In this document: piece by piece, positions 1,681-63,321 of the stretch | Numbering within the stretch: position 1 is the stretch's first letter | Layout: every line of letters starts with the position of its first letter | Source: a bacterium | Lineage (GTDB): Bacteria > Patescibacteriota > Minisyncoccia > Phycocordibacterales > Phycocordibacteraceae | DNA: 64,000 nt | Direction of reading: 5' to 3' | Assembly (NCBI GenBank): GCA_023269085.1 | Contig: JAHFML010000002.1 | Span: 65,266 to 129,265, forward strand | Made by a program: the position numbers and the translations under genes | Notes under the pieces: model-generated | What the model was told of the DNA's origin: nothing | Databases searched by the model: none | What the model saw: the letters and a program-made list of their open reading frames with translations, nothing else

Positions 1681-2391
1681 TCACCAAGGTTCGAGGGCTA
1701 CAGATGTTAATGACTCGTCATCGGCGTGATATTCGAGATGGCTGGCAAGCAGATCGCGCGCCTCATCCTTGAATGTTTGTACGTCTGGATAAAGCGCACG
1801 TAAGGGCTCGTGTTCGATAATCGGCGATTCTACAATCGAGAGAAACGCGGGGAGGCTGGAGAATTCATACGTGGTCGCCCAATTCCACGCATCATCAAAT
1901 TGTTCGGACGACCGCTTTAATCCGCCCGGGTATAATTCAAGCACGTTCTTGACCTGAATATAGAACGCGAGGTATCTAAGATGCGCATCTTCGGATACGG
2001 TACGACTTCGGTACGCGCCTTGGAACAGACTCCCACGCTCATCATATTTCGCGTTGAAGTGCGCAGTCATGCTTCCGAACACACGCTGCAGAAATTTCGT
2101 CGTTCCGTCTTCACGTATTTCTTCGATAAGGAGATGCACATGGTTGGGCATGAGTGTCCAAGCAAGAATATGAACAAGCGGTTCAGGTTCCGGCCACCAT
2201 TCCGGCCGGAAGAAATCATCGTGTCCCTCGACACTTTTCTTCCAGTTATCGTCATGAAAAGTGTCGTTCATGTAGAACAACAACTTTTGGAAGCGGCGTT
2301 GATCGGAGGCATCACGCGTGATATCCATACCGCGCACCCCACGCTTGGTCACATGCATAATCGAACCGATCCCATACGGCTCTACTCTCAT
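1681..2391 (-). CDS. IS200/IS605-family Y1 (HuH) transposase, REP-associated tyrosine transposase (RAYT)-like
   Basis: LMPNHVHLLIEE (HuH motif), GSLFQGAYRSR, LRYLAFYI tyrosine helix; flanked on both sides by REP-D palindromes. Confidence 0.75.
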   Translation of the reverse strand: MRVEPYGIGSIMHVTKRGVRGMDITRDASDQRRFQKLLFYMNDTFHDDNWKKSVEGHDDFFRPEWWPEPEPLVHILAWTLMPNHVHLLIEEIREDGTTKFLQRVFGSMTAHFNAKYDERGSLFQGAYRSRTVSEDAHLRYLAFYIQVKNVLELYPGGLKRSSEQFDDAWNWATTYEFSSLPAFLSIVESPIIEHEPLRALYPDVQTFKDEARDLLASHLEYHADDESLTSVALEPW

Positions 2392-3053: not shown

Positions 3054-3076
3054 GTATCGAAGTCAGACTTCGTTAC
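3054..3076. repeat. REP family D palindrome (copy 3, one mismatch)
   Basis: GTATCGAAGTCAGACTTCGTTAC between the hydrolase start and rpsA stop. Confidence 0.75.
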
Positions 3077-4197: not shown

Positions 4198-4234
4198 ATA
4201 TATAAGCGGCGCGGATTTTCCGAGGCGGTTCTGT

Positions 4235-4251
4235 CCAAGGTCGAACCTTGG
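4235..4251. repeat. REP family A palindrome CCAAGGTCGAACCTTGG (singlet)
   Basis: Seen directly in the intergenic region upstream of rpsA; same core as copies at 8059, 8473, 8979, 9175, 31258, 32574, 37918, 58067, 62193. Confidence 0.85.
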
Positions 4252-4550
4252 AATGCAGGGTTAGCCGACTCCTACTTCTTCGCACGCGATGAGGGGAGTG
4301 TAGCACAGAGCGTATAAAAGCTAAAGGACCTTCTTGACGAAGGTCCAGTCCTATAGAGCCGGTTGTTGGTCAGGTCGCCGCCGCGCCCAGGGTGGTCAGG
4401 CTGGCCATAGTCGGAGGCCCCGTGAGGCCGAAGCTAGAAGTGCGCATGTCGTTCTCCTTGAACGATTGAGGGCGGGTTTGCAGACGCGCCTACCAAACAA
4501 AAACAATCGGAAAGAGCGTCTGCAGGGACTATAGCAGAACGGGTGAGAAA

Positions 4551-8052: not shown

Positions 8053-8058
8053 TTTTGT

Positions 8059-8075
8059 CCAAGGTTCGACCTTGG
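8059..8075. repeat. REP family A palindrome CCAAGGTTCGACCTTGG (with conserved 5' flank TTTTGTCCAAGG)
   Basis: Seen directly, just after the gyrA stop. Confidence 0.85.
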
Positions 8076-8088
8076 AGTCGGGCGCATT

Positions 8089-8490: not shown

Positions 8491-9150
8491 TTAATCAGGG
8501 GCGTAGGTAAGCCACTCGGTGACGAGCTCTTTAAACTCCATGCCAGAATCGAAATATCCAGGCAAGGCATTGGCGGTGAGGATGATATTCTCGGCACGCG
8601 TCTCGCCGAGATAATCGCGATAGCTTGATGGCGCGTATTGCGCGAGATATCGTTCTGCGGCCGCGCGGTCTCTGATCCCCGTCTCTTTCCATTTCTGTTC
8701 GATAATCTTCACTGGGTTGAGATGAATATACGAAACGAGATAGCGCAAATAACGGTCATCCGCGACATGAGTTGCCTTGAACTTCCCTTGGAAGAGGGAG
8801 CCGTTCCGGTCGTTCTTCTTATTGAAATACATCGTATAACCGGTAGTGAGCTTCTGCATGAACTTGCTGATGCCGCCTTCTTGAAGCTCGCGCACGAGGA
8901 GATGGAAATGGTTTGGCATAAGGCAGTACGCAGCAATCTCGACGAGCGGTTCTCCTTCTCGTTTTCCCACCAACTCGTCCAAGGTTCGACCTTGGAGTTT
9001 TAGAACGACAGGAGTGCTTTGGTTCGCAAAATAGAGAAGAGCAAGGAAGCGACGGTAGTCACTTTTGTCTAAGAAGACTTTCCGTTTCTCGGTGCCGCGA
9101 TTGTAAATGTGGTAGTACTCTTCTGGCGCGAATGCGAATGTTCGTTGCAT
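8491..9150 (-). CDS. IS200/IS605-family Y1 transposase, RAYT-like (second paralog), carrying an in-frame REP-A copy
   Basis: YCLMPNHFHLLVRE HuH motif, GSLFQGKFKAT, LRYLVSYI; REP-A at 8979-8995 lies inside the ORF and encodes ...KLQGRTLDEL... Confidence 0.8.
   Translation of the reverse strand: MQRTFAFAPEEYYHIYNRGTEKRKVFLDKSDYRRFLALLYFANQSTPVVLKLQGRTLDELVGKREGEPLVEIAAYCLMPNHFHLLVRELQEGGISKFMQKLTTGYTMYFNKKNDRNGSLFQGKFKATHVADDRYLRYLVSYIHLNPVKIIEQKWKETGIRDRAAAERYLAQYAPSSYRDYLGETRAENIILTANALPGYFDSGMEFKELVTEWLTYAPD
8979..8995. repeat. REP family A palindrome inside RAYT coding sequence
   Basis: CCAAGGTTCGACCTTGG within ORF 8491..9150, frame preserved. Confidence 0.8.
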
Positions 9151-9174
9151 AACACTCGAAGTGTAGCATTATTT

Positions 9175-9191
9175 CCAAGGTCGAACCTTGG
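9175..9191. repeat. REP family A palindrome (opposite orientation, CCAAGGTCGAACCTTGG)
   Basis: Seen directly just upstream of the RAYT start. Confidence 0.85.
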
Positions 9192-9253
9192 AAAACTTGC
9201 GAGAGGTGTTGATTGCGCGCGACCGAAGGTCGCGCGCATGGTATTTTATACCC

Positions 9254-18516: not shown

Positions 18517-19680
18517 ATGCCATGGCACAAGAAGCGCGTGTATCTCGATGTCGCCGCTGGGGTGGTGGGGAATTCGTCGTCGCCGCACGAGGAGGGCCGA
18601 GCCACGAAGGCAGTGCTTGAAGAGGCGCGACGTGATATCGCACGTCTCGTCGAGGTGCAGGCCGATGATGTCATCTTCACGAGTGGCGCGACGGAGAGTA
18701 ATGCAATCGCTATTCTCGGGATCCCGCGCGCGCTTCGCGCGCGCGGGGCGAGCAACATACACGCGCTCTACCTCTCGACCGCGCACGCCTCGATTGTCGA
18801 GAATATGAAAGTGCTCGAGAGTGAGGGTGTCGCTATTGAGGCGTTGCCTATTCGCGAGTCTCGCGTCGACACCGAGGCGCTTCGTGCGATGCTACGACCC
18901 GAGACGGTGCTGGTCGCGATGGAAGCCGTCTGCGGCGAGACGGGCGTGGTATGGAATACGCGTGCGGTTGCCGAGGTTCTTCAAAAGTACAAAATTGGAC
19001 ATGATATGTCCGATTTGGGTGGACACCTAGTGTCCACCCGTCTGCGGGTGTTTTTGCATGTCGACGCGAGTCAGGCGTCATTGACCGAGAAGATTTCGCG
19101 CGAGCACTTCGGCGCGGACACGCTCACGCTCGACGGCGCGAAGGTCGGGCCGCGTGGTATCGGCCTACTCGTCGCGCATCGGACGATACCGATGGCGCCA
19201 CTCTACGCGGGTGGCGGGCAGGAGCGGGGAGTGCGGCCGGGGAGCGAGGCGCCGGAGCTCGCGCGGGAGTTCGCGGCGGCGCTTCACGCCGCCACAGATG
19301 GTGCTCCTGCATTTCGCGCCGCCGCAGAGCGGCGGCGCGTCGAGCTTGTGACGAATCTCACCGCTATTCCAGGTTTGGTTATCAATGAGGGCCGTACGCA
19401 AGCGCCGAACATCCTCAACCTCTCGCTCCTCGGCCGCGATACGGATTATCTCGTCGCGCTTCTCGACGAGGCCGGCTTCGCGCTCGCGACGCGGAGCGCC
19501 TGTGAGACCGACAGCATGACCGGCTCGCGCGCGGTTGAGGCGCTCATGGGCGACGCCGCGCGCGCTCGCGCGACCCTACGCGTCTCGTGGGGGAGCGCGA
19601 CGCGTCCGCGCGACCTCACGGATTTTGCAAAGGCACTTTCGCGTGCGGTCGCATTCATTGACAGCGCCAACAAGAGGTAG
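18517..19680 (+). CDS. Cysteine desulfurase / class V aminotransferase (IscS/NifS-like) with in-frame palindrome insertions
   Basis: PLP fold-type I signatures (SGATESNAIA..., HVDASQA); two palindromes at 18997-19039 encode ...KIGHDMSDLGGHLVSTRL... in frame. Confidence 0.7.
   Translation: MPWHKKRVYLDVAAGVVGNSSSPHEEGRATKAVLEEARRDIARLVEVQADDVIFTSGATESNAIAILGIPRALRARGASNIHALYLSTAHASIVENMKVLESEGVAIEALPIRESRVDTEALRAMLRPETVLVAMEAVCGETGVVWNTRAVAEVLQKYKIGHDMSDLGGHLVSTRLRVFLHVDASQASLTEKISREHFGADTLTLDGAKVGPRGIGLLVAHRTIPMAPLYAGGGQERGVRPGSEAPELAREFAAALHAATDGAPAFRAAAERRRVELVTNLTAIPGLVINEGRTQAPNILNLSLLGRDTDYLVALLDEAGFALATRSACETDSMTGSRAVEALMGDAARARATLRVSWGSATRPRDLTDFAKALSRAVAFIDSANKR
18997..19011. repeat. 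Palindrome family C unit GGACATGATATGTCC
   Basis: Identical 15-mer at 61014-61028 (inside tgt). Confidence 0.8.
19017..19039. repeat. Palindrome family B unit GGGTGGACACCTAGTGTCCACCC
   Basis: Same core at 60303-60335 (tgt) and twice at 62541-62597 (uvrB). Confidence 0.85.
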
Positions 19681-30779: not shown

Positions 30780-33206
30780 TTATTTCAAATATTCAGCCGC
30801 TTCAGCGGGAGTGAACGAAGTGGGCGAGACAGACTCGGGGAGATAGATGCGACGGAGACCTTTCTTCAAAAAGAGACCCTGCTTTGATTTGTAGAGCACG
30901 ATAGTCTTGCCGGTCTTGGGGTGCTTACCGATCTCTTGTACGATCTCGACGCCGCGCGGCGGCTGCTTCGGCGCGGCAAGGAGCGCGAGCGCCGTGTCGA
31001 GCGTGACCGTGTAGGGGTCGCCGATCGCGGGCTTGAGCGAGCGGAATTCGCCATCGCTCCCGACGTAGGGGCCGAAGCGGCCGGTCGAAGCGAAAACGGT
31101 TTTGCCGGTGCTTGGGTGCATCCCGAGCTCGCGCGGGAGCGAGAGATAGTGGAGCGCGTCGGCGAGGGTCACCTGCGAGAGGTCGGTGCCGGCGGGGATG
31201 CTCGCGCGCTTGGCGGCAACCTTCGGGCGACCCTTTGCGCGCTTCTTCGGTTTCTTCGATTCAAGGTTCGACCTTGAATCCGAATCCTTAAGGTCGGACC
31301 TTGGTTCGGGTTCGGGCAACGCCATCTCGACATATGGCCCGAAGCGACCCGTCTTGATATAAATAGGCGCGCCAGTCGTCGGGTCATTGCCAATGGGCTC
31401 GTCACCTTTGAGCTCGACGCCCTCTTCGGTGCGCGCACCGAGACAGTCGGGATACTTCTTACAGCTCATGAAGATGCCGCCGCGACCGAGCTTCAGCTCC
31501 ATCGGGCTCCCGCAGAGAGGGCAAGTGAATTCGGGCGACACTTCGCCGAGCGAGGTCGCCTTCGGGAGCTTATCTTTTTCCTTCACCTGTCTCTCAAAGG
31601 GGCCGTAAAATTCGGAGAGCGTCTCCTTGTAGCCGCGCTCGCCGCGCGCGATCTCGTCGAGCTCGTCCTCCATCGTTGCGGTGAAGGAGTCGCTGATGTA
31701 GGTCGCGAAGTTTTCTTCGAGCCAGCCCGAGACGACCATACCGGTCGCCGTCGGCTTCAAGGTGCGGCCGGTCTTCTCGACGTATTCGCGGTCCGAGAGC
31801 GTCTTCATCGTTGAGGCATAGGTCGAGGGGCGGCCGATGCCGCGCTTCTCGAGCTCCTTGATGAGGCCGGCCTCGGTGTAGCGGTTCGGCGGTTCGGTCT
31901 GCTTCTCCTCCTCGCCGAGCGAGAGGAGCGTGAGCGGGTCGCCCTTCGCCACGCGGGGTAATTCGACATCCTCACCCTTCGCTTTCGTGTCGAGTGCGAG
32001 CCAGCCCGGGAAGAGTGTCCGCGAGCCGGTCGCCGCGAAGAGCGGAATGTCGGCATCGGCCTTCGCCGAAATATTCGTTCGCATGATTTTCGCGCTTGCC
32101 ATCTGCGAGGCGAGCGTGCGAACACGGATGAGCTCGTAGAGCGCGTGTTCGTCGGGCGTCGCGCCGGCATGTCCGCATGCGGCATCGGTGGGGCGGATTG
32201 CTTCGTGCGCCTCCTGCGCGTTCTTGCTCGTCGTCTTGTAGGCGCGCGTCTGGGCATACTCTTTACCGAATTCTTGCTCGATGACCGTTATCATTTTCGC
32301 GACGGCTTCGGCACCGAGATTGACCGAGTCGGTGCGCATGTAGGTGATGTGGCCGGCTTCATAGAGCTTCTGTGCGGCCCGCATCGCGCGCGAGGGCGCG
32401 AAGCCGAGACGCGTCGACGCGACCTGTTGGAGCGTCGAGGTGGTGAAGGGCGGACGCGGGGATCGCTCCTCCGCCTTTTCTATAATGTCAGCGACCTGCC
32501 AAGCGGCGGCGCGACCGAGCCTCACGATGCGCCCTGCTTCTTCGCGCGTCGCGGGCTCCTCGACGCAGGTAGTCATCAAGGTCGAACCTTGAACTTCAAG
32601 GTTCGACCTTGATGACGAGAAGGAGGCACGGAGGACGAAATAGGTGACGGGCACGAACGCTTTGATCTCGCGCTCGCGTTCGGCGAGGATCCGGAGCGCG
32701 GGCGATTGCACGCGGCCGGCCGAGAGCCCGTAACGAACTTTCTTCCAGATGAGTCCCGAGAGATCATAGCCGACGATGCGGTCGAGCACGCGCCGCGCCT
32801 CTTGCGCCTGCCGCAAATCTTCGTCGATAGTGCGCGGGTGGGCAAGCGCCTCTTCGATAGCGGCCTTGGTAATCTCGTGGAAGGCGACGCGCTTGGGCTT
32901 CTTCAGCTTCGCCACCTCCTTGATATGCCAGGCGATAGCTTCGCCCTCGCGGTCGGGGTCGGTCGCGAGATACACCTCGTCGGCCTTGGCGGCTGCGGCC
33001 CGTATCTTCTCGATGATCTCCTGCTTCTCGGGCGGGATGATGTAGTGCGGCACGAAGCCGCCCTCGATATCGACCGCATCGATATTGCTCTTGGGCAAAT
33101 CGCGCACATGCCCGACCGAGGCCAAGACCGTGTAGCCTTTCCCGAGGTAGGTGCCGATAGTGCGCGCCTTGGTGGGCGACTCAACGATGAGAAGACGGTT
33201 CGTCAT
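30780..33206 (-). CDS. topA: DNA topoisomerase I, carrying two in-frame REP-A doublet insertions
   Basis: Toprim N-terminus MTNRLLIVESPTKARTI, catalytic domain, C-terminal zinc ribbons (CPLCGSPM...); insertions encode ...SSSRSNLEVQGSTLMTT... and ...RSDLKDSDSRSNLES... Confidence 0.9.
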   Translation of the reverse strand: MTNRLLIVESPTKARTIGTYLGKGYTVLASVGHVRDLPKSNIDAVDIEGGFVPHYIIPPEKQEIIEKIRAAAAKADEVYLATDPDREGEAIAWHIKEVAKLKKPKRVAFHEITKAAIEEALAHPRTIDEDLRQAQEARRVLDRIVGYDLSGLIWKKVRYGLSAGRVQSPALRILAEREREIKAFVPVTYFVLRASFSSSRSNLEVQGSTLMTTCVEEPATREEAGRIVRLGRAAAWQVADIIEKAEERSPRPPFTTSTLQQVASTRLGFAPSRAMRAAQKLYEAGHITYMRTDSVNLGAEAVAKMITVIEQEFGKEYAQTRAYKTTSKNAQEAHEAIRPTDAACGHAGATPDEHALYELIRVRTLASQMASAKIMRTNISAKADADIPLFAATGSRTLFPGWLALDTKAKGEDVELPRVAKGDPLTLLSLGEEEKQTEPPNRYTEAGLIKELEKRGIGRPSTYASTMKTLSDREYVEKTGRTLKPTATGMVVSGWLEENFATYISDSFTATMEDELDEIARGERGYKETLSEFYGPFERQVKEKDKLPKATSLGEVSPEFTCPLCGSPMELKLGRGGIFMSCKKYPDCLGARTEEGVELKGDEPIGNDPTTGAPIYIKTGRFGPYVEMALPEPEPRSDLKDSDSRSNLESKKPKKRAKGRPKVAAKRASIPAGTDLSQVTLADALHYLSLPRELGMHPSTGKTVFASTGRFGPYVGSDGEFRSLKPAIGDPYTVTLDTALALLAAPKQPPRGVEIVQEIGKHPKTGKTIVLYKSKQGLFLKKGLRRIYLPESVSPTSFTPAEAAEYLK
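31258..31304. repeat. REP family A doublet inside topA (GATTCAAGGTTCGACCTTGAATC ... AAGGTCGGACCTTGG)
   Basis: Two inverted REP units ~10 bp apart; reading frame of topA preserved. Confidence 0.85.
32574..32614. repeat. REP family A doublet inside topA: 41-nt perfect palindrome CATCAAGGTCGAACCTTGAAcTTCAAGGTTCGACCTTGATG
   Basis: Seen directly; frame preserved. Confidence 0.9.
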
Positions 33207-33267: not shown

Positions 33268-34125
33268 TCACGCCCGGTGCCACGCACCGAATTCTTCACG
33301 GATGAGGCCGCGGATCTCGAGCGAGACGAGGGCGGTGAGAATGTCGCCCGCGCCGGCGGAGCCGGCGCGGAGTATCTCGTCCCGCGTCTTCGGCTCGTCA
33401 AGCGCTTGCCAGATAGAGAGCTCGGTCTCTTCGAGATCAGCTGGCGATACGCTGTGCGAAGAAGTCTCGCGAGGGGCGATCTTGAGCGCTTCGAGAATGT
33501 GAAGCGGCTCGGTCACGAGTGTCGCGCCGAGGCGGATGAAAAGATGCGGGCCGAAGGCGTGGCTGTCACCGATGCGATGCGGGATGCAGAGGAGCTCGCG
33601 ATTGTAGTCGGCCGCGAGGCGTGCGGTGATAAGCGTGCCCGACTTCTCTCCCGCCTCGATGACCAGCACCGCGTCCGCGAGGCCGACCATGAGGCGATTC
33701 CGCTCGGGGAAGAAGTGAATACGCGAGGCGGTATCGGGCGGATACTCAGAGAGAAGGCCACCACCTTTTTCTAAAATTTCTTTAGCAAAGGCGCGATTAC
33801 TCCTCGGATACAAGACGCTCTCACCGAGACCCGAACCCGGGACCGCGAGGGTGTGGAGGCCGACCGCGAGCGCGGCTTTGTGCGCACAGGTATCGACACC
33901 GAGCGCGAGGCCCGAGACGATAGAGACAGGATAGCCAGCGAGCCCACTCACGAGCCTCTGACACGCCTCTTCGCCGTAGCGCGTCATCGCGCGGCTCCCG
34001 ACAACGGTGAGAAAGCGCGTACCCGCGGGCGGGAGCGTGCCCTCGAGCCAGAGCTTTTTCGGCTGCTGCGGTATCTCGCGCAACTGGGAGGGCCACTCTT
34101 CGCTCGCGAGCTCGCGGATAGTCAT
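33268..34125 (-). CDS. dprA: DNA-processing protein DprA (Smf)
   Basis: Rossmann-like DprA core LTVVGSRAMTRYGEEA...SGLALGVDTCAHKAAL... Confidence 0.8.
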   Translation of the reverse strand: MTIRELASEEWPSQLREIPQQPKKLWLEGTLPPAGTRFLTVVGSRAMTRYGEEACQRLVSGLAGYPVSIVSGLALGVDTCAHKAALAVGLHTLAVPGSGLGESVLYPRSNRAFAKEILEKGGGLLSEYPPDTASRIHFFPERNRLMVGLADAVLVIEAGEKSGTLITARLAADYNRELLCIPHRIGDSHAFGPHLFIRLGATLVTEPLHILEALKIAPRETSSHSVSPADLEETELSIWQALDEPKTRDEILRAGSAGAGDILTALVSLEIRGLIREEFGAWHRA

Positions 34126-37160: not shown

Positions 37161-38186
37161 ATGTCATTCTGGCAGAAACTCCCGAAACCTTTTTTCGTCA
37201 TGGCGCCGATGGCAGATGTCACCGATGCCGCCTTCCGCGCGCTTATCGCGAGCCGCGCTGCGCCCGACGTTTTCTGGACCGAGTTCGTCTCGGCCGACGG
37301 GCTCTATCACACCCGCGAGATCGCACGGATGCCGGACAATGAGAACCCACTCATGCGCGACCTTTTGAAGAGCAGTGCGGAGCGGCCGATAGTCGCGCAG
37401 ATATTTTCAAACAAGCCGGAGATGATCGCGTATGCGACGCGCGTGGTTGCTGACCTTGGCTTCGACGGCGTCGATCTCAACATGGGCTGCCCTGATAGAG
37501 CGATAGAGCGGCAGGGGAGCGGTGCCGCGATGCTGAAGTCGCCGGAGGTAGCCCGCGCGGTAATCCGCGCGGCGAAGGGTGCGAGTAGCTTGCCCGTCAC
37601 GGTCAAGACGCGTGTCGGGTATAATCGCGAATCGCTCGATGAGTGGCTGCCCGTCTTGCTCGAAGAAGCGCCGGCCGCTATCACGCTGCACCTGCGCACA
37701 CGCAAAGAGTTGTCGCTCGTACCCGCGCAGTGGGAGCTCATGAAGAGGGCGGTCGCTCTTCGCGATAGCCTCAATCCTGACGTACTCCTTATCGGTAACG
37801 GCGATGTGACGAGTGTTGAGCAGGGTAAGCGGCTTGTCGATGAGACCGGTTGCGATGGCGTCATGATCGGCCGCGGCATGTTCGGCAATCCGTGGGTCTT
37901 TGAGGGATTGACGCGCACACCAAGGTCGGACCTTCGGTCCGAATTCTCAAGGTCCGACCTTGGTGTGCGCGAACATGGGCTCTCCGAAAAGCTCGAAGCT
38001 TTAGTTGAGCTCGCGCATAACTTCGAGAAGCTCTTGCCGCCCAAAAATTTCTCCATACTCAAGAAGCACATCAAAGCCTTTGCCACGGGCTTCGACGGCG
38101 CTGCCGATCTCCGCGCGCGCCTTATGCTCGCCGACTCTGCTACTGAGCTCGAAGGGATTGTTGCAGAATACGTAGATGGAGCGTAA
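37161..38186 (+). CDS. tRNA-dihydrouridine synthase (DusB-like) with an in-frame REP-A doublet insertion
   Basis: FFVMAPMADVTDAAFR, LNMGCP, TIM-barrel FMN motifs; insertion encodes ...LTRTPRSDLRSEFSRSDLGVRE... Confidence 0.85.
   Translation: MSFWQKLPKPFFVMAPMADVTDAAFRALIASRAAPDVFWTEFVSADGLYHTREIARMPDNENPLMRDLLKSSAERPIVAQIFSNKPEMIAYATRVVADLGFDGVDLNMGCPDRAIERQGSGAAMLKSPEVARAVIRAAKGASSLPVTVKTRVGYNRESLDEWLPVLLEEAPAAITLHLRTRKELSLVPAQWELMKRAVALRDSLNPDVLLIGNGDVTSVEQGKRLVDETGCDGVMIGRGMFGNPWVFEGLTRTPRSDLRSEFSRSDLGVREHGLSEKLEALVELAHNFEKLLPPKNFSILKKHIKAFATGFDGAADLRARLMLADSATELEGIVAEYVDGA
37918..37965. repeat. REP family A doublet inside dus gene: 48-nt hairpin CACCAAGGTCGGACCTT-cggtccgaattctc-AAGGTCCGACCTTGGTG
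   Basis: Seen directly; loop contains GAATTC as in the uvrB copy. Confidence 0.9.
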
Positions 38187-40339: not shown

Positions 40340-41041
40340 GTGTTAGCTTTACCGAAAGAAAAAGCGCGTGCCGTACAGCTTCGCAAACAAGGTAAAACCT
40401 ATGGAGAAATTGCAAAGCAAATTCTGGTTTCTAAATCAACGCTTTCTCTTTGGTTGCGAGATGTTGAAGTGTCAGCAGAGTTTCTCTCTCGTATCCGACA
40501 AAAGAAATTAGATGCGGTCAAGAAGGGTTGGGAGGCGCGCAGGAAGGAGCGTATCGATCGAACGAAGCAGATTACTGATGCGGCACGAGAAGAAGTCTCG
40601 AAATTTTATAAACAGCCACTCTGGCTCGTTGGCGTAACTCTTTACTGGGCTGAAGGACATAAAGAAAAATCTTGGCGTCCGGGGGCACTCGTGACTTTCA
40701 CCAACATGGACGAAAATACGATAATTATCTTCAGAAATTGGTGTCGTAAATATATGGATGTCTCGGACGGTGATTTTGTTTACAGCCTCTATGTTCATGC
40801 TACTCACGAAATGCGGACGTTAGAAATAAAACAATGGTGGGCACGCAAACTCTCAATAAACCCTGATAGCATCGCCGTTTATTACAAGAAACATACAACA
40901 AAACACGTGCGTCATAATGACGACGATAACTATCATGGGGTTTGTCGTGTTCGTGTGAGGAAGAGTGTGGATATGAATCGGAGAATTGCTAGTTGGACAT
41001 CCGAAATGGTACGTTCACTGGAGGACAAAAATAAGCTATGA
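40340..41041 (+). CDS. Hypothetical HTH-domain protein (low-GC islet; possible homing-endonuclease-like)
   Basis: N-terminal HTH (TYGEIAKQILVSKSTLSLWLRD); ...LWLVGVTLYWAEGHK... faintly LAGLIDADG-like; clearly lower GC. Confidence 0.4.
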   Translation: MLALPKEKARAVQLRKQGKTYGEIAKQILVSKSTLSLWLRDVEVSAEFLSRIRQKKLDAVKKGWEARRKERIDRTKQITDAAREEVSKFYKQPLWLVGVTLYWAEGHKEKSWRPGALVTFTNMDENTIIIFRNWCRKYMDVSDGDFVYSLYVHATHEMRTLEIKQWWARKLSINPDSIAVYYKKHTTKHVRHNDDDNYHGVCRVRVRKSVDMNRRIASWTSEMVRSLEDKNKL

Positions 41042-41063
41042 TAGAGCCACTCGTGCTCACCGC

Positions 41064-41134
41064 TGGGGGATCGTCTAATGGTAGGACGACGGGTTTTGGT
41101 CCCGTTAATTTAGGTCCGAGTCCTAATCCCCCAG
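41064..41134 (+). tRNA. tRNA-Gln-like (anticodon TTG), atypical
   Basis: Manual fold: acceptor TGGGGGA/TCCCCCA with G73 (U1:A72/G73 as in E. coli tRNA-Gln), 3-bp D-stem, anticodon loop UUUUGGU, T-arm TTAGG-TCCGAGT-CCTAA; an alternative 8-9 bp acceptor register exists. Confidence 0.55.
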
Positions 41135-41260
41135 CAGTGTGCAGGAGACTCTAGGATCGTTCCCTAGCTCCCCAGCAAAGTCGTGCGAGGTTATCTCGCA
41201 CAAGACGCGTCAAATGGATGAGTTACTCAGAATATTGATATATGAGTTAGAATAAGCCCA

Positions 41261-42229
41261 ATGGAACAATTTTCTCATGCGCAAAAAGAATCTGGAATAA
41301 ACCGAGTTGTCGGATTCGATGCAGGACAGGAGAAAAAATTCTTACAGTATTTCAAAGATAAGTTTGAAACCAGATCTCCTGATTCAGGAGATAAAGAAAA
41401 AACATCCGAACAAGTGGCGCTGATTGACCGCACCAATAAGGAGATGCGAGATTTCTTGGCACGGTACAATATCAATGCCGTTGAGATCCCGGCGGATAAT
41501 GTTCATATACTCGATCGGTCGAAACTTACGCAAGAAGAACTTCGAGAGATTCAAAAAAGATTTGGCACTGAGAGTGGATTCTACTCAGCCTTTAAGCAAG
41601 GCGTCGCGATTATGAAAGATTACGATGTAAGCAAATTGTCGTTTCTGCAAACTCTTGTCCACGAGTCGCTCCATCTTCAGGGATTTTATTCGTATCAAAA
41701 GAGTTCTCGAGAGACTGCCGATTTTAGCGTGAAAAACGAAGATAACTCGGCAAGTTTGAACATCCGACGATCAGGATTCTCTATCGGCACAAAAGATGGT
41801 AAAAGACGGCTCTTCCATGAGATTAATGAATCTATTATCACGGAGCTACAAATTCGATTCGAGAACGCATACCTCGCGCAGTGGCCAGAGCTGAAAGAAG
41901 AATTAAAAGCTCGCGATGCCTGTATCGAACGAGTCGCAAAACGAGACAACGCACCAATAGAAGAAATACGGAAGGTTGTAGCGAGTTTCTCTGGATACGC
42001 ATGGGTAACCTATCCCTATAACGACGAGCGCCAGGAGTTTAATTCTCTGGTCGATGAGTTGTATACGAGAAACCAATCAGATTTTGAATCGCGAGAAGAT
42101 GTCTTTAATTTATTTGTTGAAGCAACAATGAATGGTCGTCTTCTCCCTGTCGCACGACTCATTGAGAAGACATTCGGTAAGGGAACATTTAGGACAATTG
42201 GTGTGAACAGTGCGAATAAGCACGACTAG
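41261..42229 (+). CDS. Hypothetical protein (low-GC islet; contains HESLH motif)
   Basis: ORF 322 aa; LVHESLHLQG could be an HExxH zinc site but no further support. Confidence 0.4.
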   Translation: MEQFSHAQKESGINRVVGFDAGQEKKFLQYFKDKFETRSPDSGDKEKTSEQVALIDRTNKEMRDFLARYNINAVEIPADNVHILDRSKLTQEELREIQKRFGTESGFYSAFKQGVAIMKDYDVSKLSFLQTLVHESLHLQGFYSYQKSSRETADFSVKNEDNSASLNIRRSGFSIGTKDGKRRLFHEINESIITELQIRFENAYLAQWPELKEELKARDACIERVAKRDNAPIEEIRKVVASFSGYAWVTYPYNDERQEFNSLVDELYTRNQSDFESREDVFNLFVEATMNGRLLPVARLIEKTFGKGTFRTIGVNSANKHD

Positions 42230-57554: not shown

Positions 57555-58070
57555 ATGAATCCGATCCAGACTGGTATCGCTACCGCCCTCGCGCTCGTCG
57601 TTGTCGCCGTTTTCTTCTTCTTCCCGAGCTTGCTCCCCTTTGGCCAATCGGCACCGACAGAGCCAGCACAGGTGAGCGTCGCCGCTACCACTAATCAACA
57701 ACTAGCTTCAACCACTATGCCAACAGAAAATGTTACCGATCTCCAGATAACCGACGAGACCATCGGCACTGGCGCCGTCGCCGCCGCGGGCGACACCGTT
57801 ACGGTCAACTATGTCGGTGCGCTCACGAACGGTACCGTCTTTGACGCTTCGGCGAATCACGGCTCGACCGGCTTCACCTTCCCGCTTGGGGCAGGGCAGG
57901 TTATCAAGGGTTGGGACATGGGCGTCGCAGGGATGAAGGAGGGTGGCAAGCGCAAGCTCGTCATCCCGGCCTCGCTTGCCTATGGCGACCGCGCGGTAGG
58001 GAATGTCATCCCGGCAAGTGCGACGCTCATCTTCGAGGTCGAGCTCGTGAAGGTGCAGAAAGGGAAGTAA
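57555..58070 (+). CDS. FKBP-type peptidyl-prolyl cis-trans isomerase (membrane-anchored/secreted)
   Basis: GDTVTVNYVGALTNGTVFDAS...FTFPLGAGQVIKGWDMGVAGMKEGGKRKLVIPASLAYG FKBP signature. Confidence 0.9.
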   Translation: MNPIQTGIATALALVVVAVFFFFPSLLPFGQSAPTEPAQVSVAATTNQQLASTTMPTENVTDLQITDETIGTGAVAAAGDTVTVNYVGALTNGTVFDASANHGSTGFTFPLGAGQVIKGWDMGVAGMKEGGKRKLVIPASLAYGDRAVGNVIPASATLIFEVELVKVQKGK

Positions 58071-58119
58071 CCAAGGTTCGACCTTAAGAAATTTGGGCCA
58101 AAGGTCGAACCTTGGTTAC
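58067..58119. repeat. REP family A doublet forming a 19-bp-stem hairpin GTAACCAAGGTTCGACCTT-loop-AAGGTCGAACCTTGGTTAC
   Basis: Starts inside the FKBP stop codon; a second GC hairpin terminator follows. Confidence 0.9.
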
Positions 58120-59922: not shown

Positions 59923-61214
59923 GCGCGATGAAATTTGAGATAGAGAAGCGCGCGGCCGGCTCTACCGGCCGCGCGGGGCTCATCACGACGCCGCACGGCG
60001 TCATCCGTACGCCTGCCTTCTCGCCGGTCGGGACCAAGGCGAGTGTGAAGGGCATCTTCCCGAGTCAGCTGAAGGCGCTCGGTGCCGAAGTCGTCCTCGC
60101 GAACACCTATCATCTCTATCTCCAGCCCGGCGAGAAGGTGGTCGAGCAGGCGGGCGGCCTCGCGAAGTTCATGGGCTGGGAGGGCTCGTCCCGCGGATCT
60201 TCAGCGGGATGGGGGCCGACCATCACCGACTCGGGCGGCTTCCAAGTCTTCTCGCTCGGCGCGGCCTTTGGTAAAACTATTTCCAAATTCACTCGCGAGG
60301 ATCCCGTGGGTGGACACCTAGTGTCCACCCACGGGCTGGCGCATTTCGATCCTGATGTGGCGAGTCAGCACGGTCAGCTCGCTATCATCGACGACGAGGG
60401 CGTCACCTTCACCTCACACCTCGACGGCTCCTTGCATCGCTTCACGCCCGAGCGCTCGGTCGAGATCCAGCACGCGCTCGGCGCAGACATCTTCTTCGCT
60501 TTCGACGAGTGTACTTCGCCCTCTGAGCCCTATGAATATCAGCGCGAAGCGATGGAGCGCACGCACCGCTGGGCCGAGCGCAGCTTGCAGGCGCATCGGC
60601 AAAATCTTGCGGCAAGAGAGAAACAAGCGCTCTTCGGCATCGTGCAGGGCGGCCGGCACGAAGACTTGCGGCGCGAGTCGGCGCGCGCTATCGCCGCCAT
60701 GGGCTTCGACGGCATCGGTATCGGCGGGTCATTCAGTAAAGAGGACATGCGCGGCGCCCTTGGCGCCGCGGTGGGCGAGCTCCCCGAAGAGCTCCCGCGT
60801 CACTTCCTCGGTATCGGCGAGCCGGGCGATATTCTCGAGGGCATTGCGGGCGGGATGGACCTCTTCGACTGCGTCGCCGCAACGCGCATCGGCCGCCACG
60901 GCTCGATCTATACCCGTCGCGGCATCATCCACCTGACCGGCGAGCGATACAAAGACGACTTCTCGCTGCTCGATCCCGAAATGTCGGACATATCATGTCC
61001 AACATCTGATGTTGGACATGATATGTCCGACATTTTCACGCGCGCGTATGTCGCGCACCTCATCCGCTCTAAAGAGATGCTCGGCTCGACGATCTGCTCG
61101 ATGCACAATCTCGGCTTCATCCTCAACCTCGTCGCGGGAGCGCGCCAAGCTATCCTCGACGGTCGCTTCGATTCCTACCGCGCCGACTTCGTGCGAGACT
61201 ATTACCATGGCTAA
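59919..61214 (+). CDS. tgt: Queuine tRNA-ribosyltransferase with two in-frame palindrome insertions
   Basis: VLANTYHLYLQPGE, FAFDEC (catalytic Asp), zinc site near FDCVAATRIGRHG; insertions encode ...EDPVGGHLVSTHGLAHF... and ...EMSDISCPTSDVGHDMSDIF... Confidence 0.9.
   Translation: MSAMKFEIEKRAAGSTGRAGLITTPHGVIRTPAFSPVGTKASVKGIFPSQLKALGAEVVLANTYHLYLQPGEKVVEQAGGLAKFMGWEGSSRGSSAGWGPTITDSGGFQVFSLGAAFGKTISKFTREDPVGGHLVSTHGLAHFDPDVASQHGQLAIIDDEGVTFTSHLDGSLHRFTPERSVEIQHALGADIFFAFDECTSPSEPYEYQREAMERTHRWAERSLQAHRQNLAAREKQALFGIVQGGRHEDLRRESARAIAAMGFDGIGIGGSFSKEDMRGALGAAVGELPEELPRHFLGIGEPGDILEGIAGGMDLFDCVAATRIGRHGSIYTRRGIIHLTGERYKDDFSLLDPEMSDISCPTSDVGHDMSDIFTRAYVAHLIRSKEMLGSTICSMHNLGFILNLVAGARQAILDGRFDSYRADFVRDYYHG
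60303..60335. repeat. Palindrome family B: 33-nt CCCGTGGGTGGACACCTAGTGTCCACCCACGGG inside tgt
   Basis: Seen directly; frame preserved. Confidence 0.9.
60979..61035. repeat. Palindrome family C: 57-nt perfect palindrome (AAATGTCGGACATATCATGTCCAACATC t GATGTTGGACATGATATGTCCGACATTT) inside tgt
   Basis: Checked base by base: left arm is the exact reverse complement of the right arm; contains the GGACATGATATGTCC unit shared with 18997-19011. Confidence 0.9.
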
Positions 61215-63321
61215 CTTCAAACTCCACACTCCCTACCAGCCGGCAGGCGACCAGCCGGCGGCTATCGCGGCGCTCGAGAGCGGACTCGAGGCGGGCATGC
61301 GCCATCAGACGCTCTTTGGCGTGACGGGCTCGGGCAAGACCTTCACCATCGCGAACGTCATCGCAGCGCATGACAAGCCGACCCTCGTCCTCGCACACAA
61401 CAAGACCCTCGCGGCCCAGCTCGCGCAAGAGTATCGCGAATTCTTTCCCGAGAACGCCGTCCACTATTTTGTCTCTTACTACGACTACTATCAGCCCGAG
61501 GCCTATATCGCGCACTCCGACACCTACATCGAGAAGGAAGCAATGATAAACGCCGAGATTGATCGCCTCCGCCACGCGGCAACGCAAGCGCTTCTCACGC
61601 GCAAGGACGTCATCATCGTCGCGTCGGTCTCGGCGATCTACGGGCTTGGCTCGCCGGCAGAATATGAGAAGGTGCACGTGAAGATTGAGAAGGGCGCCGC
61701 GGAGGATCGCGCGGCGCTGATCCGCAAGCTCGTGGGTATCCACTTCGAACGCACGCCTGCCGACTTGAACCCTGGTCAGGTGCGCGCTATCGGGAACTCG
61801 CTCGAGCTGATGCCGGTCAACGAGCGCGTTATCTATCGCGTCGCTTTCGAGGGCGACACGATTGTGCGCATTGATCAGCTCGACCCGATCTCGCGCGCAC
61901 TTGTCGCGTCGCCCTCGTCTATTTTCATATTTCCCGCGAAGCACTTCATCACGAGCGAAGCAGAGCGGGTACGCGCGATCGAGGACATCAAGCTCGAACT
62001 CGATGGGCAATTGGCGAAGTTCAAGAGGGAAGCGAAGCCGCTTGAAGCCGAACGCTTGAAACGCCGCACCTTGAGCGACCTCGCGCTCATCCGCGAGATG
62101 GGTTATACCAACGGTATCGAAAATTATTCGCGCCACTTCGACGGTCGCAAGAGCGGCGAGCCGCCCTTCACGCTTCTTTCATACTTCCCACACCGGAATC
62201 AAGGTCGAACCTTACATACGAATTCTCAAGGTTCGACCTTGATTCCGGATTTCCTTACCATCATCGACGAGTCTCACGTGACGGTCCCGCAGCTCGGCGG
62301 CATGTACGCGGGCGATCGCTCACGCAAGGACGTGCTCGTCGAATACGGCTTCAGGCTCCCTTCGGCGCGCGACAATCGGCCGCTCAACTTCGAAGAGTTC
62401 GAAGAGCGTGTTGGGCAGGTTATCTATACGAGCGCAACGCCGGGCCCCTATGAGCGCGCACATGCTGAGCAGGTAGTCGAGCAAGTCATCCGCCCGACGG
62501 GCCTCATCGACCCGGAGCTCGTCATCCGCCCGGTGTCTGGGGAGGCGGGTGGACACCTAGTGTCCACCCATTTAGACACTAGGTGTCCACCCGCCTCCTA
62601 TCGCGGGCAGGTGGCGAACTTTATCAGTGAAGCCGAGGTCGTCATCAAGCGCGGCGGCCGCGCGCTCGCAACCACGCTCACCAAGCAGATGGCCGAAGAC
62701 CTCTCCTCATTCTTGCGCGAGAAAGGTATAAAAGCCGAGTATCTCCACTCTGACGTGAAGACGATCGACCGCATCGACATCCTCACCAAGTTCCGCAAGG
62801 GCGAGTTCGATATTCTCGTCGGCGTCAACCTGCTTCGCGAAGGACTCGACTTGCCCGAGGTCGAGCTCGTCGGCATCCTCGACGCGGACAAAGAAGGCTT
62901 CTTGCGCAGTGAGACCTCGCTCATCCAGACTATCGGCCGTGCCGCGCGCAACGTGCTCGGCCGCGTGATTCTCTATGCCGACGTGATGACCAAGTCGCTC
63001 GAGAAGGCTATTGGCGAGACCAATCGCCGCCGCGCGCTCCAAGTGGCCTACAACGAGAAGCACAGCATCACGCCGAAGACGATTCACAAAGAGATTCGCG
63101 ACATCGCTGCGAGCATGCGGAGCGACCACCAGAAGACGATTGACGAACTTCTGGTGCTCGACACGCTCGCGTACAAGGATGATCCGAAGGCTTTTGTCGC
63201 GCGTAAGCGAGAGGAGATGGCCGAAGCGGTCGAGAAGCTCGACTTCGAAACCGCCGCGCTTATTCGCGACGAGCTCTTCAAGCTTGAGGACGGCGGGTCG
63301 AAAGGGAAGAAGAAACGGTAA
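61207..63321 (+). CDS. uvrB: Excinuclease ABC subunit B with two in-frame palindrome insertions
   Basis: Walker A GVTGSGKTFT, helicase motifs, C-terminal UvrB/UvrC-interaction helix (LIRDELFKLE); start moved to ATG 61207; insertions encode ...HRNQGRTLHTNSQGSTLIPD... and ...GEAGGHLVSTHLDTRCPPASYRG... Confidence 0.9.
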   Translation: MANFKLHTPYQPAGDQPAAIAALESGLEAGMRHQTLFGVTGSGKTFTIANVIAAHDKPTLVLAHNKTLAAQLAQEYREFFPENAVHYFVSYYDYYQPEAYIAHSDTYIEKEAMINAEIDRLRHAATQALLTRKDVIIVASVSAIYGLGSPAEYEKVHVKIEKGAAEDRAALIRKLVGIHFERTPADLNPGQVRAIGNSLELMPVNERVIYRVAFEGDTIVRIDQLDPISRALVASPSSIFIFPAKHFITSEAERVRAIEDIKLELDGQLAKFKREAKPLEAERLKRRTLSDLALIREMGYTNGIENYSRHFDGRKSGEPPFTLLSYFPHRNQGRTLHTNSQGSTLIPDFLTIIDESHVTVPQLGGMYAGDRSRKDVLVEYGFRLPSARDNRPLNFEEFEERVGQVIYTSATPGPYERAHAEQVVEQVIRPTGLIDPELVIRPVSGEAGGHLVSTHLDTRCPPASYRGQVANFISEAEVVIKRGGRALATTLTKQMAEDLSSFLREKGIKAEYLHSDVKTIDRIDILTKFRKGEFDILVGVNLLREGLDLPEVELVGILDADKEGFLRSETSLIQTIGRAARNVLGRVILYADVMTKSLEKAIGETNRRRALQVAYNEKHSITPKTIHKEIRDIAASMRSDHQKTIDELLVLDTLAYKDDPKAFVARKREEMAEAVEKLDFETAALIRDELFKLEDGGSKGKKKR
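62193..62248. repeat. REP family A doublet inside uvrB: 21-bp-stem hairpin CCGGAATCAAGGTCGAACCTT-acatacgaattctc-AAGGTTCGACCTTGATTCCGG
   Basis: Seen directly. Confidence 0.9.
62541..62597. repeat. Palindrome family B composite (two GGTGGACAC/GTGTCCACC units, outer arms GGAGGCGGG/CCCGCCTCC) inside uvrB
   Basis: GGAGGCGGGTGGACACCTAGTGTCCACCCatttaGACACTAGGTGTCCACCCGCCTCC. Confidence 0.85.

Follow-up and report, generated by a model that had tools for sequence, protein, structure and literature searches.

In-frame palindromic repeats of two families in the uvrB gene of a Patescibacteria bacterium are probably REP/REPIN-like hairpins tolerated in protein loops

Introduction

How did two long palindromes of distinct sequence come to lie within the reading frame of one DNA repair gene, and why are they still there? 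The question is raised by uvrB in a 64,000-nucleotide (nt) stretch of DNA from a bacterium of the Phycocordibacterales (Patescibacteriota), here called the window (GenBank assembly GCA_023269085.1, contig JAHFML010000002.1, positions 65,266 to 129,265 of the forward strand; G+C content, 57.6%). A first-pass annotation had described the first palindrome as a doublet of repetitive extragenic palindromes (REP) and the second as a composite of another family, and it offered general permissiveness of the gene or targeting of particular DNA structures as the explanation. We surveyed about 82 kb, consisting of the window, contig L083 on its right (73 kb together with the window), and contig L089 on its left (8.3 kb), along with the 120 closest UvrB orthologues (80 to 100% identity). 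The results indicate that the two palindromes are most likely dispersed hairpin repeats of the REP or REPIN (REP doublet forming a hairpin) type, which survive in tolerant loops of UvrB as near-neutral or mildly harmful passengers.

Results

Two perfect palindromes of distinct families lie in frame in uvrB

The host of both palindromes is an intact uvrB open reading frame (ORF) of 704 amino acids (aa) at 61207-63321 of the plus strand. Its product aligns end to end with solved UvrB (E = 7.5e-221), and GSGKT (Walker A), DESH, and QTIGRAARN are all aligned. In the genome collection, the nearest UvrB relatives come from metagenome bins of the Patescibacteria group and of Parcubacteria type, and the closer protein relatives carry names such as Candidatus Kaiserbacteria, Paceibacterota, and Minisyncoccia. 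The gene had been described as an essential repair gene; it is indeed conserved, but we know of no evidence that uvrB is essential.

Palindrome 1 has 21-nt arms that are 100% complementary around a 14-nt loop, ACATACGAATTCTC. It is composed of two inverted family-A units, CAAGGTCGAACCTT(A) and CAAGGTTCGACCTTG, each 15 nt long and each a small hairpin itself (CAAGGT-CGA-ACCTTG and its inverse), and it encodes ..RNQGRTLHTNSQGSTLIP.. in frame. Palindrome 2 has 24-nt arms, again 100% complementary, and a 10-nt loop. Here, a full family-B unit, GGTGGACAC-CTA-GTGTCCACC (62548-62568), is joined by a second, inverted unit that is 5' truncated by its first 4 nt (62575-62591), and the encoded peptide, ..EAGGHLVSTHLDTRCPPAS.., is likewise in frame. 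A complete inverted family-B unit, if read in the frame of the first one, would give an in-frame TAG; the second unit has an open frame because the spacer and the truncation shift it. An example of a peptide spanning an insert in the UvrB translation is TLHTNSQGSTLIPDFLTIIDESHVTVPQLGGMYAGDR. The extent and the 21-bp stem of the first palindrome are exactly as annotated; the second one is the composite described, except that it ends at 62598, one base beyond the annotated end. Both are in frame and encode the peptides that had been quoted for them, so that two sequence-distinct palindrome families are inserted in frame in this gene.

Chance does not account for these sequences. GGTGGACAC was counted 7 times versus 0.13 expected, and the family-A arm 4 times versus 0 expected, both exceeding every shuffle, and families A and B are thus dispersed multicopy palindromes far above the shuffled background. 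In Markov simulations, 0.0 loci were obtained for perfect stems of at least 14 bp and 1.7 for perfect stems of at least 10 bp with loops of up to 20 nt, versus 9 and 27 loci in the window, respectively. An assembly artefact was also ruled out, because the second assembly (L083) is identical to the window over 12,684 bases and the REPIN of palindrome 1 recurs, at an identical codon, in three related genomes.

The inserts occupy a loop before helicase motif II and an interdomain linker

The placement of the inserts was read from an alignment to solved UvrB and from Pfam coordinates (Table 1). In the alignment to solved UvrB, the palindrome stretches correspond to gaps of 18 and 22 residues. Compared with relatives from the candidate phyla radiation (CPR), the net gain is 12 aa for insert 1 (TLHTNSQGSTLI; relatives read FPHxxDGxPDF) and 16 aa for insert 2 (GGHLVSTHLDTRCPPA, between ..GEA and SYRGQ..). 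Insert 1 comprises residues 329-348 and ends one residue ahead of the FLTIIDESH strand (helicase motif II). Insert 2 comprises residues 445-464, in the linker between the IRPTGLIDPEL segment and the second RecA-like domain (Helicase_C); DEAD-box C-terminal domains align to UvrB from residue 460. The chain of the solved UvrB interaction domain matches residues 147-248, and neither insert falls within this UvrA-interaction domain (UvrB_inter). Thus, of the suggestion that both insertions might sit in domain 2 or linker loops, the linker holds for insert 2, but domain 2 holds for neither. An AlphaFold2 model of UvrB built with 50 close homologues was unusable (mean predicted local distance difference test score, 46.9).

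Palindromes are scattered over many genes, including uvrA and uvrC

Such in-frame insertion is not special to uvrB: other genes are also hit, and there is published precedent (PMC3733652). Perfect stems of at least 9 bp were found at 48 loci in the 73 kb, 33 of which are wholly intragenic, and every host frame is open. The hosts include uvrA (2 elements), uvrB, uvrC (4), topA (2), dus, tgt, miaA, a cysteine desulfurase gene, and a transposase gene. The two elements of uvrA are a family-A REPIN and a family-F doublet, and elements of both kinds recur in uvrC (the REPIN there having 21-bp arms), which also has a family-C unit and a GC hairpin. Together, uvrA and uvrC hold five family elements in 4.04 kb, whereas the remaining coding sequence of about 58 kb has 10 (binomial p = 0.002, a small count; uvrB was left out of the test, since it had prompted the finding). 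This enrichment agrees with the published bias of intragenic REPs to UvrABCD and RecBCD genes; they are concentrated in uvrABC/D, recBCD, and polA, and uvrB of R. conorii has two (PMC3733652).

As a separate observation, the 10-mer ACATGGGCTC directly follows both the dus REPIN (37973-37982) and the uvrA family-F doublet (L083 14142-14151), and these are its only two occurrences in the 73 kb.

TABLE 1 Positions of the palindromes, repeat units, and genes discussed (window coordinates unless a contig or residues are named)
Feature	Position	Strand	Remarks
Palindrome 1 in uvrB, family-A REPIN (inverted REP doublet)	62193-62248	+	Arms 62193-62213 and 62228-62248
Palindrome 2 in uvrB, family-B composite	62541-62598	+	Arms 62541-62564 and 62575-62598
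Pfam UvrB_inter in UvrB	Residues 158-247
Pfam Helicase_C in UvrB	Residues 480-582
Pfam UvrB in UvrB	Residues 589-631
Pfam UVR in UvrB	Residues 665-694
RAYT-like Y1/HUH transposase gene, IS200-like	8491-9150	-	219 aa; Pfam Y1_Tnp 1.3e-10
Family-A unit upstream of this gene	9172-9194		22 nt before start codon
Family-A unit inside this gene	8978-8996		In frame; encodes LQGRTL
Family-A unit directly after its stop codon	8472-8490
Further family-A unit	8058-8076		400 nt further downstream of the gene
Family-A REPIN in dus	37912-37971	+	23-bp arms; in frame; loop CGGTCCGAATTCTC resembles the uvrB loop
Family-A doublet in topA	32572-32616	-	Short spacer; in frame
Second family-A pair in topA	31258-31303
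Family-A REPIN at FKBP gene 3' end	58067-58119		Essentially intergenic
Single family-A unit	4234-4252		Intergenic
Second RAYT-like Y1 gene	1681-2391	-	236 aa; 40% identical to the first; Y1_Tnp 3.4e-7
Family-C palindromes bracketing this gene	1650-1676 and 2408-2438
Extra family-C copy	3054-3076
Family-B single unit in tgt	60303-60335	+	15-bp stem; in frame; PVGGHLVSTHG
Family-D unit, then family-B unit in cysteine desulfurase gene	18994-19039	+	D, 18997-19011; B, 19018-19038; in frame
Family-D doublet in tgt	60979-61035	+	28-bp arms; in frame
Single family-D unit in miaA	25260-25286
GGAC-N7-GTCC sites	18997, 19021, 25266, 39448, 50101, 60312, 60986, 61014, 62551		Also in L081-L088
uvrA and uvrC, just past the window end	L083 13006-17046		All elements in frame

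Families A and C adjoin genes for RAYT-like proteins

Family A has 16 unit matches at 11 loci in the 64 kb. Six doublets in the window and L083 (uvrB, dus, topA, uvrA, uvrC, and 58067) have related 13- to 14-nt loops (..CCGAATTCTC..), and the doublet is therefore the repeated unit, that is, a REPIN. The term REP doublet used in the first-pass annotation was apt, as family A shows inverted paired units and also a flanking gene resembling those of REP-associated tyrosine transposases (RAYT). This RAYT-like gene lies 53 kb upstream of uvrB, and its translation contains PNHFHLL (the HUH motif) and SYIHLNP (the tyrosine). Family-A units are found 5' of, inside, and 3' of it. The same three-unit layout is repeated in L087 and L088, which come from other genomes, and all three units of a genome have one variant in common: TCCAAGGTCGAACCTTGGA in the window, TTCAAGGTCGAACCTTGAA in L088, and TACAAGGTTCAACCTTGTA in L087. 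The neighboring genes differ among the three loci, and the RAYT-like homologues are 63 to 81% identical, nearly all of them 219 aa long. This co-variation, seen in sequence, is the best evidence here that the RAYT-like protein and family A belong together, and the protein is the likely mobilizing enzyme of the family, with a predicted catalytic role.

With regard to the unit inside the gene, [LIF]QGxTL occurs at the same position in 111 of 120 RAYT-like homologues (P0121-P0240; 2658-2670 in L087 and L088). Of these, 48 have R as the middle residue, 55 have S, and the other 8 have Q, P, or L; R and S correspond to the two orientations of the hairpin loop (CGA versus TCG/TCA).

A second RAYT-like gene is bracketed by palindromes of family C, GTATCGAAGTC-N-GACTTCGATAC, which is also found in frame in uvrC. 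The motifs read from its translation are PNHVHLL and FYIQVKN. Flanking repeat units were thus found for the RAYT-like genes of family A (in the window, L087, and L088) and family C, none having been found for family B, and both proteins match the Y1 HUH fold. Such an arrangement has precedent in REP-rich genomes, in which several repeat families each have their own transposase paralogue (PMC3733652). Within the second gene, the position of the first gene's internal REP is taken by a different palindrome with an 11-bp stem (2229-2266).

Family B belongs to a group of hairpins with a common GGAC foot

Family B occurs at three loci in the window, all of them intragenic (uvrB, tgt, and the cysteine desulfurase gene); the copies noted earlier at 19017 and 60303 are thus present. 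All three sites fall in stretches that are absent from solved homologues, the D-plus-B stretch of the desulfurase gene corresponding to a gap of about 19 aa relative to solved IscS. Regarding the alternative that the family-B sequence is native to UvrB and conserved in it, none of the 119 other UvrB orthologues has GGHLVST or DTRCPP, and the nearest relative (L081) is empty at this site. Since the peptides are unique to this UvrB and the nearest relative is empty, family B is a dispersed repeat, in line with the first-pass annotation. Its only doublet is the single composite copy in uvrB.

GGAC-N7-GTCC is a frame common to family B, family D (GGACAT-NNN-ATGTCC), and family F (GGACTT-CGT-AAGTCC), and it was counted 10 times in the window versus 1.0 expected. 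In relatives, the two inner stem positions co-vary as complementary pairs (GGACGT..ACGTCC, GGACCT..AGGTCC, and GGACAC..GTGTCC). Because these positions change in complementary pairs, the data point to B, D, and F as one putative hairpin superfamily, recognized by structure plus the GGAC foot. Family-A and family-B cores are absent from 80 species-representative loci (UvrB at most 77% identical), and the left extension L089 holds no further transposase gene and no element of families A to F.

Three observations concern tgt. Its family-D doublet occupies the place of the CxCxxC zinc motif of Z. mobilis TGT, and no such motif is left. At the same place, L081 (535-587) has a different palindrome with 26-bp arms and the same AACATC-T-GATGTT center. 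In L082 (8773-9935), tgt is split into two ORFs.

Both uvrB sites are recurrent hot spots with turnover

Extra residues were found at site 1 in 17 of the 120 orthologues and at site 2 in 67, and many of the peptides are unrelated. The closest relative, P0002 (locus L081; 94% identity over shared alignment columns), reads RGVVEAEKYKGQ at site 2 with nothing inserted. At site 1, it apparently retains the right-hand end of the REPIN site, TTGGTTTCGGAT, with a different palindrome inside. A family-D peptide, MSDITCPTSDVGHVMSDI, is present at site 2 of P0046, with variants in P0062 and P0045. A GTYDVP element was seen in four orthologues at site 1 and in one, P0022, at site 2; a related GAHDVP is found at site 2 of P0004. 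When read as DNA, the site-2 inserts of L084, L085, and L086 are palindromes with 26-, 20-, and 17-bp arms, respectively, that of L082 is a degenerate palindrome with 13 of 17 positions paired, and the site-1 inserts of L081 (11-bp stem) and L085 are also palindromic. Distant relatives without palindromes vary in length at both sites as well, and such variation is what tolerant loops look like. The variable loops and recurrent hot spots support the permissiveness proposed in the first-pass annotation; targeting, the other part of its proposal, is possible in part.

The window, L082, L091, and L092 all carry the REPIN of palindrome 1 at one and the same codon, with arms CCGGAAY-CAAGGTCGAACCTT, and the arms of the four carriers contain one compensated pair and one uncompensated mismatch. 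Between the window and L082, identity is 40/42 in the REPIN arms, 10/14 in the loop, 72.7% in the rest of uvrB, and 48% at third codon positions; arm conservation is significant against the rest of the gene (Fisher p = 3e-4) and against third positions (p = 2e-10). A neighbor-joining (NJ) tree of UvrB has a star-like, weakly resolved shape; in it, the four carriers do not group as sisters, and the REPIN is missing from their nearest neighbors. Four accounts would fit this conserved REPIN: a conserved master copy may have inserted several times at a favored site, recombination may have moved short patches of uvrB between lineages, the element may have been lost several times while the hairpin was under constraint, or template switching may have corrected one arm against the other.

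Discussion

We propose that both uvrB palindromes are copies of REP/REPIN-type hairpin repeats scattered through the genome. A Y1 protein would cut and rejoin single-stranded hairpin DNA, as the IS200/IS605 and E. coli TnpA-REP enzymes do (PMC3333891, PMC3479197, PMC8266576). Copies would land in many places, and selection would remove those that are out of frame, contain a stop, or harm the structure. UvrB would offer two tolerant places, a loop that precedes the motif II strand and the linker leading into the second RecA-like domain, in which the inserts would be translated as 12 and 16 extra loop residues. They are probably neutral or mildly harmful passengers. In related lineages, these two places have been hit repeatedly and their residents replaced.

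Several findings weigh against this explanation. The net gains of 36 and 48 nt are smaller than the palindromes (56 and 58 nt); therefore, either these are not simple insertions, some host codons having been replaced, or their flanks were remodeled later. The REPIN arms are 95% identical where uvrB is 73% identical, and an old neutral passenger should not be so conserved. The translation of the inserts is deduced from the intact frame alone. On the side of the enzymes, the best NCBIfam match of both RAYT-like proteins is the RAYT model REP_Tyr_transpos (NF047646), at 50.5 bits for the first and 30.7 bits for the second, below the cut-off of 80, and phmmer returned no solved-structure relatives of these proteins. 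In the 82 kb surveyed, no transposase gene was seen beside units of family B, D, or F, so that family B may be assigned to a RAYT-type system by analogy, and its exact 21-nt unit had no match in the JGI metagenome contigs. Furthermore, the units have no unpaired 5' GTAG/GTGG tag of the classical REP kind, and the flanks of those of family A read TC/AT/AC-CAAGG.

An alternative is active, site-specific targeting, in which the elements home to the two uvrB positions by a short motif or a resident hairpin; the hot spots would then reflect the insertion mechanism more than the tolerance of the protein. A 56-nt REPIN with copy-specific outer arms, CCGGAAY/RTTCCGG, at an identical codon in four non-sister lineages is what such homing would produce, and the arm identity of 40/42 in a gene of 73% identity suggests that the REPIN arrived after the hosts diverged. 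The L081 insert, which sits within the retained REPIN-site end as if replaced in place, also fits, as do the elements that adjoin or nest (such as D next to B in the desulfurase gene, or the composites at other loci) and the arms of two site-2 palindromes that reach into conserved host codons. However, the tree is weakly resolved, recombination of uvrB patches or repeated loss would yield such a distribution of carriers as well, and the length variation in palindrome-free distant relatives is that of tolerant loops. Nor was any motif evident that is common to the flanks of the 15 elements compared. We therefore regard targeting as doubtful, though worth keeping in sight.

A bolder version would make the REPINs site-specific cassettes, with RAYT-guided homing or replacement at hairpin-bearing sites in genes for DNA repair and nucleic-acid enzymes, and possibly self-regulation of the transposase via its internal REP. 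It is suggested by the same-codon REPIN, whose arms are 95 to 100% conserved with synonymous sites near saturation, by palindromes that replace each other at two fixed sites in more than half of the orthologues, and by about 110 transposase homologues that keep their own REP in frame in either loop orientation. We consider it rather unlikely.

A selected function would have the hairpins kept for, e.g., slowing of ribosomes at domain boundaries, mRNA stability, or DNA structure, or would have the loops modify UvrB. Conservation of the arms far exceeds that of synonymous sites and includes one compensated pair, each insert is located at a domain junction, and the predicted RNA hairpins are very stable, with minimum free energies of -37.5 kcal/mol (z -9.9) for palindrome 1 and -57.4 kcal/mol for palindrome 2; the enrichment in uvrA and uvrC, matching the repair-gene bias (PMC3733652), would also be expected. 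Such a role is nevertheless improbable. The distribution is patchy, the closest relative having no family B and another element at site 1; from lineage to lineage, the inserts at a given site have unrelated sequences, one of those at site 2 (13/17 positions paired) is decaying, and the same units are found in intergenic DNA as well as in genes that are unrelated. Searches of Rfam gave only subthreshold matches (miRNA hairpins) for the uvrB palindromes, and no internal terminator or promoter was called at either of them.

Local origin by template switching or fold-back synthesis on short inverted repeats, without mobile copies, could explain why the outer arms differ among copies and are complementary within each copy (CCGGAAT, CGCGCACAC, GTCAT, and GTAAC), why net gains fall short of palindrome lengths, and why some GC-rich perfect hairpins inside genes belong to no family, but it is very improbable, given that the cores and even the doublet loops are common to distant loci and genomes beyond chance, that the dus and uvrC copies have the same outer arm, CGCGCAC, and that the transposase genes are flanked by the same units. 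Template switching is a known mechanism for quasi-palindromes, and it may maintain or extend arm complementarity after insertion. A derivation of the palindromic flanks from the target, through insertion into palindromes or inverted target duplication, is likewise no more than a minor possibility; because dus and uvrC share CGCGCAC, the outer arms are at least partly borne by the element.

How, then, do the elements compare with known systems? The closest description is that of GTAG- and CGTC-tagged REPs, which occur singly or as head-to-head dimers, can be intragenic, and encode about 20 to 30 residues (Di Nocera et al. 2013, BMC Genomics 14:522, PMC3733652). In that work, uvrA genes of O. 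terrae have double REP inserts, and some families are linked to repeat-flanked RAYT genes. The likeness lies in short hairpins, single or paired, inside uvr genes and in the RAYT-like link. In contrast, a GTAG or CGTC end tag is missing from the present units, the host belongs to the Patescibacteria (CPR), 33 palindromes are intragenic in 73 kb, the uvrB hot spots with turnover are clade-wide, and a transposase gene carries a unit in frame.

REPIN-RAYT systems have paired, inverted REPs that fold into a long hairpin whose asymmetric loop is conserved, and a Y1/HUH gene bracketed by REPs (Bertels & Rainey 2011, PMC3116915; Nunvar et al. 2010, PMC2817692; Ton-Hoang et al. 2012, PMC3333891); in the classical REP, the foot of the hairpin is preceded on its 5' side by an unpaired tetranucleotide, GTAG or GTGG (PMC6006769). 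The inverted doublets, the REP-bracketed Y1/HUH gene, and several families with their own paralogue are found here as well. The differences are that 33 of the 48 loci are intragenic, whereas classical REPINs are extragenic, that the proteins are longer (219 and 236 aa) and score below the curated RAYT cut-off, and that there is no unpaired guide tetranucleotide; GTGG is present in family B, but within the stem. Since the elements depart from the extragenic position and the tag of classical REPs and the transposases fall below the cut-off, we call them REP/REPIN-like with RAYT-like genes, not certified members.

The Rickettsia palindromic elements (RPE), which lie in frame in unrelated housekeeping genes of a small-genome bacterium (reviewed in PMC10969869), resemble those described here as in-frame palindromic inserts in conserved genes that stay intact. 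However, the first-described RPEs are about 150 bp long (RPE-1 type, 100 to 150 bp) with a conserved peptide module, whereas the present elements are 27 to 60 bp, belong to other sequence families, and in at least two families adjoin Y1 transposase genes. As regards miniature elements of the MITE type, which have terminal inverted repeats and a duplicated target at both ends, CCGGA is present at each end of the uvrB REPIN, but as a portion of the palindrome, and direct repeats were not seen at the other 14 elements compared.

With a reduced CPR genome, these results take the finding of repair genes decorated with REPs, made in 2013, to a distant phylum. REPs are usually treated as intergenic; most REP-type repeats here lie inside housekeeping genes, heavily in uvrA, uvrB, and uvrC. 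Clade-wide hot spots with turnover, a strongly conserved orthologous REPIN, and an in-frame REP in a transposase gene go beyond the published work consulted here, and in open-access papers and preprints we found no description of intragenic REPs of this kind in Patescibacteria. The roughly 120 UvrB orthologues form a natural series of filled, empty, and replaced sites, with which the choice and survival of REPIN insertion sites and the effect on nucleotide excision repair become testable. Such inserts also inflate and diversify the loops of CPR proteins and can mislead alignment, domain annotation, and structure prediction.

Other observations

GC-rich perfect hairpins inside genes, with 10- to 11-bp stems and 3- to 5-nt loops, were found at 18723-18747, 19315-19339, 33348-33370, and 59949-59975; they stand outside all repeat families and encode, e.g., RAAGSTGRA. 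At 40340-42229, two adjacent genes have a third-position G+C of 0.41 versus 0.6 to 0.85 across most of the window. This stretch may be a foreign island, and one of its genes has an HTH_23 match.

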